Shown here one piece after another: positions 1 to 5,282 of a DNA stretch of 22,388 nucleotides. The notes under the pieces are model-generated. The model was not told the DNA's origin. It did no database searches and saw only the letters and a program-made list of their open reading frames with translations. The position numbers and the translations under genes are program-made. How positions within the stretch are numbered: the stretch's first letter is position 1; each line of letters opens with the position of its first letter. The DNA is from a virus. Its lineage: Duplodnaviria > Heunggongvirae > Uroviricota > Caudoviricetes. The stretch is taken from the IMG/VR virus record IMGVR_UViG_2778261036_000014, one strand, 5' to 3'.

Positions 1-2
1 AG

Positions 3-1103
<1,101 letters not shown>

Positions 1104-2015: not shown

Positions 2016-2205
2016 GACCGCATAACCTCCTGCTTTGTTGTTGATGCCTTTCTCATGCAATCGATCGACAAAAACGATCGATTCGATTTGTTTAATTGAT
2101 ACAACAAATAGATTGAAAAGTCATCAACAATGATTCAGGGAGGTGATTATTTACTTAAAGAAAACGAAGAGTTAGGTGGTGAAAACGATCATAAAATGAT
2201 CATTT
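2016..2205 (-). promoter_or_regulatory. com-mom upstream control region with clustered GATC (Dam) sites
   Basis: GATC at 2063, 2076, 2187 and 2198; the first two sit in the palindromic stretch aatCGATCGacaaaaaCGATCGatt roughly 50-65 bp upstream of the com ATG. Mu mom transcription is known to be controlled by Dam methylation of upstream GATC sites. Confidence 0.4.
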
Positions 2206-2267
2206 TATTGACTTTTTATACAGTGAAGGTAGGATCACGCGTATATGTAGTATGTTTCAAATCAACA

Positions 2268-2314
2268 GGATACTACATAAAAGTGAAACCCAGCATAGCT
2301 GGAACTATGCTGGG
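2268..2314 (-). terminator. Putative rho-independent terminator (minus strand) upstream of the com-mom control region
   Basis: Perfect 10-bp stem CCCAGCATAG / CTATGCTGGG with a 6-nt loop (2289-2314), followed on the minus strand by UUUCACUUUUAUG. On the plus strand it is not followed by a U-run. Confidence 0.45.
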
Positions 2315-2426
2315 TCAATCTGTAAAAACTTGCATCAATGCTTTACTTCGAGCTCGTGGCGTATCCTATGATATTCCCCGGTCTCCTGTAAAGCAGAGAT
2401 GCATAAAAAGGAGATCTTTATCATGG

Positions 2427-2594
2427 ATGAAAGAGCCTGTTTGCCCTGCCTGTAAGACTCCCTTACAGCTCATCTATCGCCGTTCTCGATCTCAAAATGG
2501 CAAGACATACAAACCCAAAAATGCTTCCTGTTTCAGGATGCTGATATGTCCTGCCTGTTCTCCCAGGAGGGAAAATACACAAAACGTGCATTAA
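2427..2594 (+). CDS. Hypothetical small zinc-ribbon protein (two CPAC motifs); reading frame is open from 2130 so the true start is uncertain
   Basis: AAGGAG at 2408-2413, 13 nt before the ATG at 2427. Product MKEPVCPACKTPLQLIYRRSRSQNGKTYKPKNASCFRMLICPACS... has CPAC-x27-CPAC. A possible sigma70 promoter (TTGACT 2208-2213, 16 bp, TAGGAT 2230-2235) lies upstream. The 5' part of the long ORF is AT-rich and may be non-coding. Confidence 0.35.
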   Translation: MKEPVCPACKTPLQLIYRRSRSQNGKTYKPKNASCFRMLICPACSPRRENTQNVH

Positions 2595-2603
2595 CAAACT
2601 CAC

Positions 2604-2623
2604 CCGGCAGGGAAACCTGCCGG
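2604..2623. terminator. Bidirectional hairpin between convergent small genes
   Basis: Perfect 8-bp stem CCGGCAGG / CCTGCCGG with a GAAA loop, lying between the stop of the plus-strand ORF (2592-2594) and the stop of the minus-strand 81-aa ORF (2633-2635). Moderately U-rich tails on both strands. Confidence 0.45.
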
Positions 2624-2632
2624 TCGGTATTG

Positions 2633-2878
2633 TTACATCATAGTACCGTCAGTTCCGGGCTGAACCGGCTCTGGTTGCTCTACGGGTTGAGGATCATTTT
2701 CCGTGCTGTTTTCAGCCGGAGAACGGCCAACCATTCGGGCCAGCACTTCATCAACATATGCGTCGATTTGTGCCTCAAAATCCTTGCGAACCTGCGCCTT
2801 CAGCACGCGGTTCACTTCTTCAGAATAAAGTGCCTGTTTGACAAGCTCTTCAGTAACCGTGCCTTTAATCTCTGGCAT
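2633..2878 (-). CDS. Hypothetical 81-aa acidic protein with predicted helical N-half and Pro/Glu-rich C-tail
   Basis: AAAGGAGA about 7 nt upstream of the ATG; hairpin immediately after the stop. No family recognised. Confidence 0.55.
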   Translation of the reverse strand: MPEIKGTVTEELVKQALYSEEVNRVLKAQVRKDFEAQIDAYVDEVLARMVGRSPAENSTENDPQPVEQPEPVQPGTDGTMM

Positions 2879-2913
2879 GAATATTCTCCTTTTGCAGGTA
2901 TATTGCCCCGTTA

Positions 2914-3096
2914 TCAGAGCGGGGTCGGGTCGTTTGGGGATGACGGTGCCTGTGCTGTTTTACTGAGTTTTTCAGCTGCCGCATCATCAATTTTACGGCG
3001 AATATAATTTCTGATGACCTTATAACCACCGCTCACCAGATATAACGCACTGACCACAGCGCAGAAATAAAGCAGCATTGTATGAACGAATGTCAT
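2914..3096 (-). CDS. Hypothetical 60-aa protein with one N-terminal hydrophobic (transmembrane-like) segment and a basic tail
   Basis: AAGGTAAGG a few nt upstream of the ATG. Hydrophobic stretch MLLYFCAVVSALYLVSGGY followed by KVIRNYIRRKIDD. Sits 35 nt upstream of the 81-aa ORF on the same strand, so probably a two-gene operon. Confidence 0.5.
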   Translation of the reverse strand: MTFVHTMLLYFCAVVSALYLVSGGYKVIRNYIRRKIDDAAAEKLSKTAQAPSSPNDPTPL

Positions 3097-3164
3097 ATAA
3101 CCTTACCTTTGATATTGACTACATAATTCGTTATCGGGTAAAAACATCGAAGCGACTGATAACC

Positions 3165-3245
3165 ACTCCTTCGGGAGTATTTTTATTTTCCTTTATGGGT
3201 TAGGTAGCTCCCGCCAGCCATATCATGACCGGCGGGATTTTTTTA
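3165..3245 (+). terminator. Two tandem plus-strand intrinsic terminator-like hairpins immediately 3' of the nanS-like gene
   Basis: ACTCC-TTCG-GGAGT followed by ATTTTTATTTTCC (3165-3191), and CCCGCCAG...CCGGCGGG followed by ATTTTTTTA (3210-3245). Both have T-runs only on the plus strand, yet no convincing plus-strand gene lies upstream. Confidence 0.4.
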
Positions 3246-5282
3246 TTCTGTTACCGCTTTTTTCACTTCCACCACAATGCTGTCAATCAGCACCGGGTAA
3301 GTTGCATTTTTTGTGATATCCGTTACGCGGAGTTTGTCCACCGGGAAAGTTCCTACTGGTGACTGCGTCAGGGTAAACGCGGCACCATCCTGACCATCAA
3401 TAACCGGAATAACCTGAAGGCTGTTATTTCCTGCAAAACGGAAGGCCAGCGTATGCCATTCATTATCAAATGCACCAAAGGTTCCCAGTTTCTGGTTATT
3501 TGTTGCCACTTTTGCATTGTGGTACATCACATTCAGGTCTTTTGCGTCTGTCTGGATGTAGAACGATGCCAGCAGATTATTCCCTGCATCCCCTGTCAGG
3601 GTGACACCCTGCGGCAGAGAGGAAACCGGCCAGTAAAGCCCCATGACATACTGGTTTGCCACCAGGTCGCCAGGTACTTTAAAACGACAACTGATTAAAC
3701 CACCATTTTTCAGCAGTTCAGCACCAGTACCGGCATCATGATCCAGATACCAAGATGATTTACCTGTTTCCTTGGTCAGTTTCATTGCCTTACCACCTGT
3801 GCCTCCTGCATCACTGATAATTTCAGCTTTACCGCCAGCCGGCTCCCAGCCCTGGGCTTTCAGATTTCCTTCTGACTCACTGACACGATAAGACAGCAGT
3901 GTTGTGGTTACTGCTTCAGTTTCTGAAGGTGACGGCACTGGTGCTTCAGTTTCAGAAGATGGAACATCGGCTTTTACTGTGGTTCGCCCCGCATGAGTCA
4001 GAACTGCCGTGGCCAGACGGTCGGAAATAATCCCACGACGTGCCCATGAACTGAAATGGCTGGCCCGGTCCGCAGATGTCCAGGTGGCGGCACTGTTACG
4101 CCACGTTGAGCCGTAATAACCAATGGATTCAATATCCGGGTCTTCTGCCGGATTGTTGGTGGGTACATTCGCGTCATTTTCATCTGTCATTAATGGAACG
4201 AAATGAATGTTTTTATCTGTTTTGTTTTTGTAGCCGCCATAGATTGCCTGGTATGCCGGTTCATTTTTCTGTTTCCAGAAATACGTGGTATCGCCACAAA
4301 TCCACGGAACGCCAGCAGCACTGCCACCGGTACACTGTTCCGCCTGTTCAGCCAGGTCTGCGCGGAATTTTTCCACCATCGCCAGAAACAGCGCGGAATG
4401 CTCCGTCGGCTTCGCATCAATATCAAACTCGCCCTGCATCCACACCACAGCAAGCAGGCGGTTTTTCGGGTTCTTCGCCAGTGCCGCTTTTGTCCGGCTG
4501 ATTAAGTCCTTATACAGCGGCTTATCCACACCCCAGCGGGCTGAGTCCTCTGAAGCACCCGTGCTGTCACTGTACGTGCCGTCAGCACCCGCCGTGAATG
4601 CAGAACCACCACGGCAGCAGGGAACCAGCAGAATCCCCGCATCTGCCGGAATAAACGGCAGCAGTTTTTTGGCAATGTGAAGCCCCTGACCCACGGTGCC
4701 ATATTGCCCTTTAGCCACATCCGCTTTCGGGTGATTTTTTCCACTCATATCCTGCACATCATGCAGACAGTGGTCGGCCAGAATGATGTCGTTATACTGA
4801 CAGGCTTTACCTCCCGGCGTGACTGTACTGCGACGGGCTAACTGCATAATACGCGGTTCGGGGCGGTCATATGTCTCCGGCAGTGGCAGACCTTCACCGT
4901 AAGCCATACCGTTTGACTGACCAGCAAGAACCACCACGTAATACCAGGAAGGGGAGCTGGAAGCAGTTTCATTTCCTGACGGACGGGTATGTGTTTCAGC
5001 ATTATCCCAGTCTGACGGTTCAGCAGTACCGGCAACATCAGCACTTAACGGAATGACCGCACCAATACCCGCTCCGGTAATTTCCACACTCGGATCACCG
5101 GATACTGGCCTTACCCACAGGCAATCCCGTGTATTAAAACTGATGAGACAGTCAGCAAATGTCATTCCTCCTTTTGTTTCGGCCGGAGGAAAGGGAGCCT
5201 CAAGAAATGCCGCTGTACCACCGGAAACTTTAACAGTAAAGTTTCCGGGCATTGATGATAGTTGAACCCATTTGGACGTCAT
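3243..5282 (-). CDS. nanS: NanS-like sialate (9-O-acetyl-N-acetylneuraminate) O-acetylesterase, prophage-encoded NanS-p type, with extra N- and C-terminal regions
   Basis: Central region YYVVVLAGQSNGMAYGEGLPLPETYDRPEPRIMQLARRS...ILLVPCCRGGSAFTAG...WMQGEFD...WICGDTTYFWK...HFSSWARRGIISDRL closely matches my recollection of E. coli NanS (YjhS) and the GQSN motif of SGNH/SASA esterases. About 115 aa precede and about 250 aa follow the esterase core. AGGAACAGG lies upstream of the ATG. Confidence 0.8.
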   Translation of the reverse strand: MTSKWVQLSSMPGNFTVKVSGGTAAFLEAPFPPAETKGGMTFADCLISFNTRDCLWVRPVSGDPSVEITGAGIGAVIPLSADVAGTAEPSDWDNAETHTRPSGNETASSSPSWYYVVVLAGQSNGMAYGEGLPLPETYDRPEPRIMQLARRSTVTPGGKACQYNDIILADHCLHDVQDMSGKNHPKADVAKGQYGTVGQGLHIAKKLLPFIPADAGILLVPCCRGGSAFTAGADGTYSDSTGASEDSARWGVDKPLYKDLISRTKAALAKNPKNRLLAVVWMQGEFDIDAKPTEHSALFLAMVEKFRADLAEQAEQCTGGSAAGVPWICGDTTYFWKQKNEPAYQAIYGGYKNKTDKNIHFVPLMTDENDANVPTNNPAEDPDIESIGYYGSTWRNSAATWTSADRASHFSSWARRGIISDRLATAVLTHAGRTTVKADVPSSETEAPVPSPSETEAVTTTLLSYRVSESEGNLKAQGWEPAGGKAEIISDAGGTGGKAMKLTKETGKSSWYLDHDAGTGAELLKNGGLISCRFKVPGDLVANQYVMGLYWPVSSLPQGVTLTGDAGNNLLASFYIQTDAKDLNVMYHNAKVATNNQKLGTFGAFDNEWHTLAFRFAGNNSLQVIPVIDGQDGAAFTLTQSPVGTFPVDKLRVTDITKNATYPVLIDSIVVEVKKAVTE

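Follow-up and report, generated by a model that had tools for sequence, protein, structure and literature searches.

A nanS-linked DUF1378-DUF826 gene pair beside a swappable cargo slot in a Mu-like prophage of Escherichia coli, with a possible accessory role in phage lysis

What are the three small open reading frames (ORFs) that lie between a sialic acid esterase gene (nanS) and the com-mom control region in the viral record IMGVR_UViG_2778261036_000014, and do they belong together? The window (the whole stretch of DNA analyzed, 22,388 nt) is the right end of a Mu-like prophage of the Sp18 type (E. coli O157 and O26), in minus-strand orientation. A first-pass annotation of this sequence had described two minus-strand ORFs, of 60 and 81 amino acids (aa), and a convergent plus-strand ORF of about 55 aa as a single module of no recognizable family. 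We find a known gene pair in a known arrangement together with a swappable cargo slot: the minus-strand ORFs are DUF1378 and DUF826, the second and third genes of a nanS-DUF1378-DUF826 cassette, and the plus-strand ORF (ORF55) is independent cargo on the other side of a predicted terminator. The best explanation as a whole (the cassette, the cargo slot and a lysis-stage membrane role for the pair) we put at roughly 50%.

The 60-aa ORF matches Pfam DUF1378 (PF07125) over the full length of the profile (residues 1-59 on positions 1-59 of 59; 131.5 bits, E 1e-38, cut-off 25), and it has the (S/A)GG(Y/W) boundary motif, the length of ~60 aa and the one N-terminal hydrophobic helix of the family. 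The hydrophobic segment is single (residues ~3-24, KD19 maximum 2.02) and is followed by five basic residues (K26, R29, R33, R34 and K35); the conserved motifs are LYFC...LYLxSGGY(K/R)xxR, with L9, Y10, F11, C12, S22, G23, G24, Y25 and R29 invariant. By the positive-inside rule, the product is predicted to be a bitopic inner-membrane protein with its N terminus out and its C terminus in, the cytoplasmic part forming what we infer to be a short basic amphipathic helix. A Shine-Dalgarno (SD)-like sequence, AAGGTAAGG, precedes the ATG. The window copy is ~45-53% identical to those of Shiga toxin (Stx)/lambdoid phages and shares with them the position after nanS-p, but it differs from other members of PF07125/PHROG 494 in its setting, a Mu-like prophage without a holin downstream. 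The ratio of nonsynonymous to synonymous substitution rates (dN/dS) is 0.19 overall and 0.24 within Mu-like loci.

The 81-aa ORF matches DUF826 (PF05696) over residues 1-52, its helical N-terminal part (56.7 bits, E 3e-15, cut-off 25). Its product is acidic (isoelectric point 4.3), and the AlphaFold model has a short helix at residues 10-17, a long one at 20-50 (predicted local distance difference test, pLDDT, above 90 over 21-50) and a Pro/Glu tail that is disordered, variable and acidic and closes with a conserved hydrophobic dipeptide (MM/ML); the protein is likely to be cytoplasmic, with the long helix as its main element. An AAGGAG SD-like sequence stands 7 nt 5' of the ATG, and dN/dS is 0.32 overall and 0.14 within Mu-like loci. 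As elsewhere in PF05696/PHROG 311, the gene follows DUF1378, but the window copy is only 33-41% identical to the lambdoid copies (also given as 38-39%), most of which tblastn at E<=1e-3 overlooks. Profile searches of a solved-structure database gave no significant match for either protein; against the PADLOC models, DUF1378 had no match and DUF826 a single chance-level one (E 0.05), and the NCBIfam models returned nothing significant for the pair. Proteins identical to both are already in RefSeq across many E. coli genomes. Thus, the description of a membrane-anchored protein and an acidic helical protein with a Pro/Glu-rich tail, each with its ribosome binding site, was correct, as was the view that these are real and uncharacterized genes; that they had no recognizable family was not, given Pfam DUF1378 and DUF826 and PHROGs 494 and 311.

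Two further observations concern the annotation and variation of DUF826. The reference annotations of phages 933W (L091, 3308-3754) and VT2-Sakai (L092, 4023-4442) each carry one ORF of 139-148 aa that is DUF826 with an N-terminal extension, and leave DUF1378 uncalled. One E. coli variant (protein P0064) joins DUF826 residues 1-34 to the frame that precedes com on the minus strand (window ~1943-2107), indicating a natural deletion of ~0.7 kb that removed the slot and the DUF826 C-terminus.

The neighbors of the pair were tallied in 80 IMG/VR loci obtained by a scan with the DUF1378 alignment. DUF826 stands 30-45 nt after DUF1378 in every one of them, and a nanS-like gene lies directly upstream of DUF1378 wherever the flank is present (78/78); the contexts are Mu-like (25 loci) or lambdoid (55 loci), with no third. 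The gene order in Stx/lambdoid phages is nanS-p, DUF1378, DUF826, holin S, lysozyme, and the pair follows the sialic acid esterase gene in hundreds of Shiga toxin phages; a survey of Stx2a phages had placed the DUF826 and DUF1378 ORFs between nanS-p and S (AIMS Microbiol 2023, PMC10462455). Since both minus-strand genes are catalogued (Pfam, PHROGs and RefSeq) and their position after nanS-p is published, this is not a new kind of element. The window cassette, whose esterase is 59-71% identical at the amino acid level to two lambdoid-phage NanS-p proteins (ArgO145 and PhiR5_2), keeps the nanS-p, DUF1378, DUF826 order of the Stx-phage late region (stx, nanS-p, DUF1378, DUF826, S, R, Rz) but ends at a predicted terminator, followed by the cargo slot and com-mom rather than by lysis genes. 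DUF1378 and DUF826 are intact, without frameshifts, in all copies, and both evolve under purifying selection (dN/dS ~0.2-0.3), which together with the dN/dS values within Mu-like loci indicates that both are functional even without an adjacent holin.

The perfect 8-bp hairpin reported in the first-pass annotation (CCGGCAGG-GAAA-CCTGCCGG) lies between the stop codons of DUF826 and ORF55 and is conserved in relatives; by our own arithmetic, chance would produce such a hairpin ~0.1 times per kb. Read in the DUF826 sense, all Mu-like variants show ATGATGTAA, a short spacer, a GC stem of 7-8 bp and a T-rich run. This run is TTTTATTTTCAT in most variants, and the U-tract is strong in other alleles (UUUUAUUUU, TTTTATTTT) and weak or degraded in that of the window (GUGAGUUUGUU, GTGAGTTTGTT). 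One stem position passes through a G-C, G.U, A-U series across variants and another variant has two wobbles, pairings that are valid in minus-strand RNA only. Paired cells make up 90.9% of the hairpin alignment versus 16-59% in slid-partner controls; a shuffle control was not significant, the sequences being too few. The features point to an intrinsic terminator that closes the cassette, and we hold the identity of the pair, the three-gene structure and this predicted terminator, taken together, with high confidence.

Beyond the terminator, the sequence comparisons identify window 2113-2603 as a hypervariable cargo slot, unrelated to the pair, with the predicted terminator of DUF826 at one end and the com-mom control region at the other, and place its true left boundary at ~2112. 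From ~2113 onward, L016-type prophages have entirely different DNA, and the slot has at least five alleles: ORF55, a convergent pair of 68-aa and 66-aa genes, a 175-aa zinc ribbon plus transmembrane (TM) protein, a 97-aa ORF, and a deletion. The genes of the slot alleles are all orphans in Pfam and PHROGs, and ORF55 itself is present in only 9/25 of the Mu-like loci that carry the pair. The trio is therefore not one module: conservation as a unit without frameshifts holds for DUF1378 and DUF826, which belong to the nanS cassette on one side of the terminator, and fails once ORF55 is included. The AT-richness noted earlier for the left part is borne out (GC 0.33-0.40 across 2001-2400 versus ~0.45-0.55 in both flanks), and this part does belong to the replaceable segment.

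What the pair does is suggested by the company kept by the wider DUF1378 family. The family is narrow, as only 35 DUF1378 clusters emerged when 1.84 billion cluster representatives were searched exhaustively with a profile; a viral scan with protein P0207 gave no further distant relatives. Its divergent members are 50-91 aa long and align with DUF1378 over residues 1-43 (99% probability in hhalign; Pfam 42 bits). For one such member 34 viral loci were fetched, and in 32 of these the gene comes directly after holin-endolysin-Rz/Rz1, in most loci with its start overlapping the spanin stop codon (ATGA), and with several types of holin (including P21-S and lambda-S) and endolysin (lysozyme, GH19); nanS and DUF826 are absent from these 32 loci. 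The isolated phage EKP1 has the same holin-endolysin-Rz/Rz1-DUF1378 order. The family is thus found in two independent lysis-cassette layouts: in one the holin comes next, in the other the gene overlaps the spanin stop codon. In the lambdoid relatives (55 loci) the pair is next to lysis genes. It is this tie to lysis cassettes in two layouts that leads us to favor a lysis-stage membrane role.

We propose that the pair would act at the cytoplasmic face of the inner membrane in the lysis stage, as a non-essential modulator of holin or spanin timing, with DUF826 as the cytoplasmic partner of the membrane protein DUF1378 in E. coli phages; in the Mu-like prophage the pair would have travelled with nanS and would still be under selection. 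This lysis-accessory function is tentative, and we rate it somewhat below an even chance. In phage T4, the antiholin RI and the co-antiholin RIII are a small membrane protein and a cytoplasmic helical partner. The analogy would lie in a small bitopic membrane protein accompanied by a cytoplasmic helical protein of ~80 aa, and in the location of the DUF1378 family beside holin or spanin genes; it is one of logic only, since the pair has no sequence or fold homology to RI/RIII and the predicted topology differs from that of RI. The 60-aa length, the one TM domain and the charged C-terminal tail of DUF1378 are generic holin/antiholin features and not diagnostic.

Several points weigh against a lysis role. 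No holin or endolysin is adjacent to the pair in the window or in any Mu-like locus, and the ends of lysis cassettes are common sites for morons, so that the adjacency may reflect insertion preference rather than function. A scan of a genome collection with DUF1378 patterns gave one confirmed locus among the matches listed, in Cedecea neteri (L007, 4797-4961), where a solo DUF1378 (71% identical over residues 1-38) stands in a prophage tail module, between a tail-fiber gene and a Dam-type DNA methylase gene, with neither nanS nor DUF826. The helical, Ala/Glu/Lys-rich extension of distant DUF1378 proteins of 80-91 aa resembles DUF826 by eye only, and a DUF1378-DUF826 fusion link was rejected when hhalign of these extensions against DUF826 gave a probability of 0.9%. 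The alleles of the two genes reassort independently (DUF826 of the window and of L006 are 94% identical, DUF1378 only 53%), leaving no allele-specific sign of a physical complex. Further, nanS-p occurs without the pair in phages Stx1_499 and CMS-2020a, and in some prophages the gap between nanS and the holin is filled by the small RNAs (sRNAs) PasA/PasC (Zhu, Shabalina and Storz, bioRxiv 2026, 10.64898/2026.05.13.724894). The promoter calls of the region are consensus matches at the frequency expected by chance in a promoter scan, and the literature under the DUF names and old locus tags holds no functional study of either family; the SfMu paper was uninformative as well.

The phages with nanS-p but no pair and the prophages with PasA/PasC also count against the likeliest alternative, one that we consider unlikely: the pair would be an accessory of the NanS-p esterase, serving to anchor, release, chaperone or regulate an enzyme without a signal peptide, and would lie near the lysis genes incidentally. 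The constant presence of nanS directly upstream in E. coli phage loci fits this reading, as do the joint movement of the three genes into Mu-like prophages, leaving the holin behind, the similar record counts in a phage collection (347 with nanS versus 309 with DUF1378) and the conserved architecture of the nanS-DUF1378 spacer. The lack of both nanS and DUF826 from the 32/34 lysis-adjacent distant loci and from the Cedecea locus also speaks against it.

Somewhat less probable again is a membrane-acting moron that brings about lysogenic conversion, for example superinfection exclusion by blocking the entry of other phages' DNA, a role that had been suggested in the first-pass annotation. A small inner-membrane protein in prophage accessory regions (at the Mu right end, and after the tail fiber in Cedecea), a cassette with its own predicted terminator and purifying selection within prophages would all suit a moron. 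Against this, no defense-system model matched significantly (best E 0.05, PADLOC), the lambdoid copies of the pair are part of the late operon, flanked by stx/nanS and S and with no lysogen promoter in evidence, and the stop/start overlap with the spanin gene in the distant branch points to late co-expression. A small membrane toxin with a neutralizing partner, likewise proposed earlier, is very improbable: only the layout, with a hydrophobic peptide of 60 aa ahead of an acidic protein of 81 aa, speaks for it, and it is opposed by the absence of significant toxin-antitoxin or defense model matches (PADLOC, NCBIfam), the 33 loci with DUF1378 but no DUF826, the embedding of the pair in phage operons rather than in a self-contained autoregulated unit, and the free reassortment of the two genes' alleles. 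The defining features of a spanin pair are lacking: DUF826 has no Cys, lipobox or hydrophobic N-terminus (an o-spanin needs a signal peptide and a lipobox Cys), DUF1378 has only ~35 residues after its TM segment and these are predicted to be cytoplasmic (versus the long periplasmic coiled-coil of an i-spanin), and the phages that carry the pair already encode Rz/Rz1.

Table 1. Positions of the cassette genes, the cargo slot and their control elements in the window.
Feature	Position	Strand	Basis or remark
com-mom upstream control region, clustered GATC sites	2016..2112	-	Mu-like variants all alike up to ACAACAAATA (~2112), diverging beyond
AT-rich left module of the cargo slot	2113..2404	+	Alignments; common to alleles with differing downstream genes
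154-aa "hypothetical protein" (PGAP call WP_115801860.1, phrog_26524)	2130..2594	+	Spans leader DNA and ORF55
Left-module palindrome with two GATC sites	2182-2217	+	Overlaps the promoter-like -35
Left-module promoter-like TTGACT-16-TAGGAT	2208-2235	+	Consensus; scan alone not above chance
Left-module hairpins, three	2244-2279, 2288-2315, 2331-2403	+	Consensus fold
ORF55, orphan 55-aa basic protein, CPAC-x32-CPAC (zinc-ribbon-like)	2427..2594	+	Cargo gene of the slot allele in the window
Predicted intrinsic-terminator hairpin ending the nanS-DUF1378-DUF826 unit	2604..2623	-	Conserved in all Mu-like variants
DUF826 protein, 81 aa	2633..2878	-	Pfam PF05696, PHROG 311, RefSeq WP_001114104.1
DUF1378 family protein, 60 aa	2914..3096	-	Pfam PF07125, PHROG 494, RefSeq WP_000144787.1
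nanS-DUF1378 intergenic region	3097..3242		A-run; GC-rich hairpin 3209-3237 (then T7 on the + strand); UUCG hairpin 3165-3178
nanS-p-like sialate O-acetylesterase, first cassette gene	3243..5282	-	Pfam SASA and DUF6645 domains

The cassette sits in accessory DNA, with the gin-like invertase on one side and com-mom on the other (Table 1). The 1.4-kb region is present in 257 E. coli genomes, with an identical stretch in many complete genomes, and in strain PA20 the RefSeq order is tail genes, invertible tail-fiber segment, recombinase, DUF6645/SASA esterase, DUF1378 family protein, DUF826 protein, the plus-strand 154-aa "hypothetical protein," Com, Mom and the prophage end. The right end resembles that of Mu in its mom gene (71% identical at the DNA level), in a Com that is a zinc ribbon and in the GATC cluster upstream; it is unlike Mu in the gap between gin and com, which is only 95 nt in Mu (with three GATC sites) and ~3.3 kb here, filled by the nanS cassette and the cargo slot, so that the DNA from ~5382 down to ~2113 is extra relative to Mu. 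The prophage terminus lies at window ~991 (TGGAGTATAGCGCGGCG...) and splits a lambdoid tail host-specificity (J-type) gene (window 1-991). The junction of J gene and prophage is absent from all 5,426 complete E. coli genomes, as expected of a transposing phage; Stx phages with an inserted Mu-like phage do exist in GenBank (LC727881, LC727895). At the 3' end of nanS a patch of 40-47 nt (window 3254-3300) is 89-97% identical to many Stx phages, with flanks too diverged for blastn, and is possibly a recombination junction that helps to exchange the cassette between phage types.

Within the cargo slot, the left module is likely to comprise a promoter and a structured 5' leader. In L005, which is 73% identical, its hairpins still pair: one change is compensatory and several others are G.U-compatible, as read on the plus strand. 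The second hairpin covaries (L013). The palindrome AAAACGATCATAAAATGA/TCATTTTATTGACTTTTT, with its two GATC (Dam) sites, runs into the -35 of the promoter-like site on the plus strand (window 2182-2235 for the two together). With the mom promoter as a parallel, this layout suggests that the cargo gene is controlled by a repressor or in a methylation-sensitive way. Zinc-ribbon motifs open two of the slot alleles (L004-L032 set).

ORF55 is probably a real orphan gene, since its frame survives an indel at the start and its variant codons follow a coding pattern. The SD sequence is 13 nt from ATG2427 and 9 nt from the out-of-frame ATG2423; other alleles are one base shorter and begin at the first ATG (MDKEP...), so that the frame is kept through the 1-nt indel by either ATG. 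Variant codons in the ORF55 frame are 6 synonymous to 4 nonsynonymous, versus 1:8 and 3:6 in the other frames (binomial p ~0.01). The CPAC motifs, which had been noted in the first pass, fall at residues 6-9 and 42-45, and one natural allele carries C6Y. Database searches with ORF55 found near-identical matches only; in Pfam the best match, Trm112p, scores 17.2 bits and so falls short of the cut-off (22). AlphaFold, run on the single sequence, places strands at residues 14-19 and 35-40 (pLDDT 69), and Foldseek with this model gave no match with E below 1.

The first-pass choice of a ~55-aa plus-strand gene fits these data better than the RefSeq protein WP_115801860.1, in which the AT-rich left part would also be coding. 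That the gene is the 154-aa protein is extremely improbable: PGAP calls it and phrog_26524 matches residues 1-104, but in 12 variants its frame ends after 17, 56, 99, 106, 135 or 154 aa, including in loci with an intact ORF55, the relatives have indels of 1, 3, 16 and 79 nt, a covarying hairpin lies inside it, and only from position 2427 do the variant codons follow the ORF55 frame. In L004 and L006 PGAP itself marks the 154-aa ORF as a pseudogene, and in L005 it annotates no gene there. Both WP_115801860.1 (154 aa) and phrog_26524 (135 aa) appear to be annotation artifacts, in which the leader is fused with ORF55 or read through out of frame.

The spacer between nanS and DUF1378 has a conserved architecture of its own: an A5-8 run and a GC-rich hairpin with covarying arms are kept in 44/45 distinct spacer variants (window, L002-L087), and the opposite strand has TTGAC(A/T)-17/18-TAAAAA. 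Read on the plus strand, the window spacer has a promoter-like TTGACT...TAAAAA pair (3114-3143), the UUCG hairpin (3165-3178) and a hairpin followed by T7 (3209-3247), making it a candidate antisense RNA of ~100 nt. The sense strand of the hairpin is the more stable in 32/44 variants (median 2 kcal/mol) and wobble pairs also favor it, whereas the conserved A-run argues for the antisense strand. Rfam has no family in the module region or in this spacer.

RNA genes also flank nanS-p elsewhere. In lambdoid loci only, STnc100 and AsxR/AgvB sRNA genes lie between stxB and nanS-p (L002, 1518-1777; L003; L069), and Rfam finds no counterpart of either upstream of nanS in the Mu-like cassette of the window. 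In lambdoid prophages, the gap that follows nanS-p can hold the PasA/PasC locus as an alternative occupant, RNA instead of two proteins, and the window has no Pas/Rfam match. In Stx1_499 (L089, 4187-4633) the nanS-holin spacer is 447 nt long without a convincing ORF; it has two copies of an "A-run + GCCAGC hairpin" motif, closes with a sense-strand terminator immediately ahead of the holin, and fits the published position of PasA/PasC.

Some consequences are practical. Annotations can be mended, as the 154-aa RefSeq ORF and phrog_26524 seem to be spurious and DUF1378 is missing from the 933W reference, and a further by-product of the analysis is a cargo hot-spot beside the mom control region of Sp18-type Mu-like prophages. 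The larger interest lies in the position of the pair, between the toxin/esterase genes and the lysis genes in most Stx phages, since Stx release depends on phage lysis; the association of DUF1378 with lysis cassettes offers a hypothesis that is cheap to test. It is possible, although we think it rather doubtful, that DUF1378 (with DUF826 in E. coli phages) represents an unrecognized class of lysis-timing factor, situated immediately upstream of the pinholin S in most Stx phages. If so, the pair would help to set the timing and amount of Shiga toxin and NanS-p release on induction, and the Mu-like copy would be evidence that its action extends to an unrelated lysis system.

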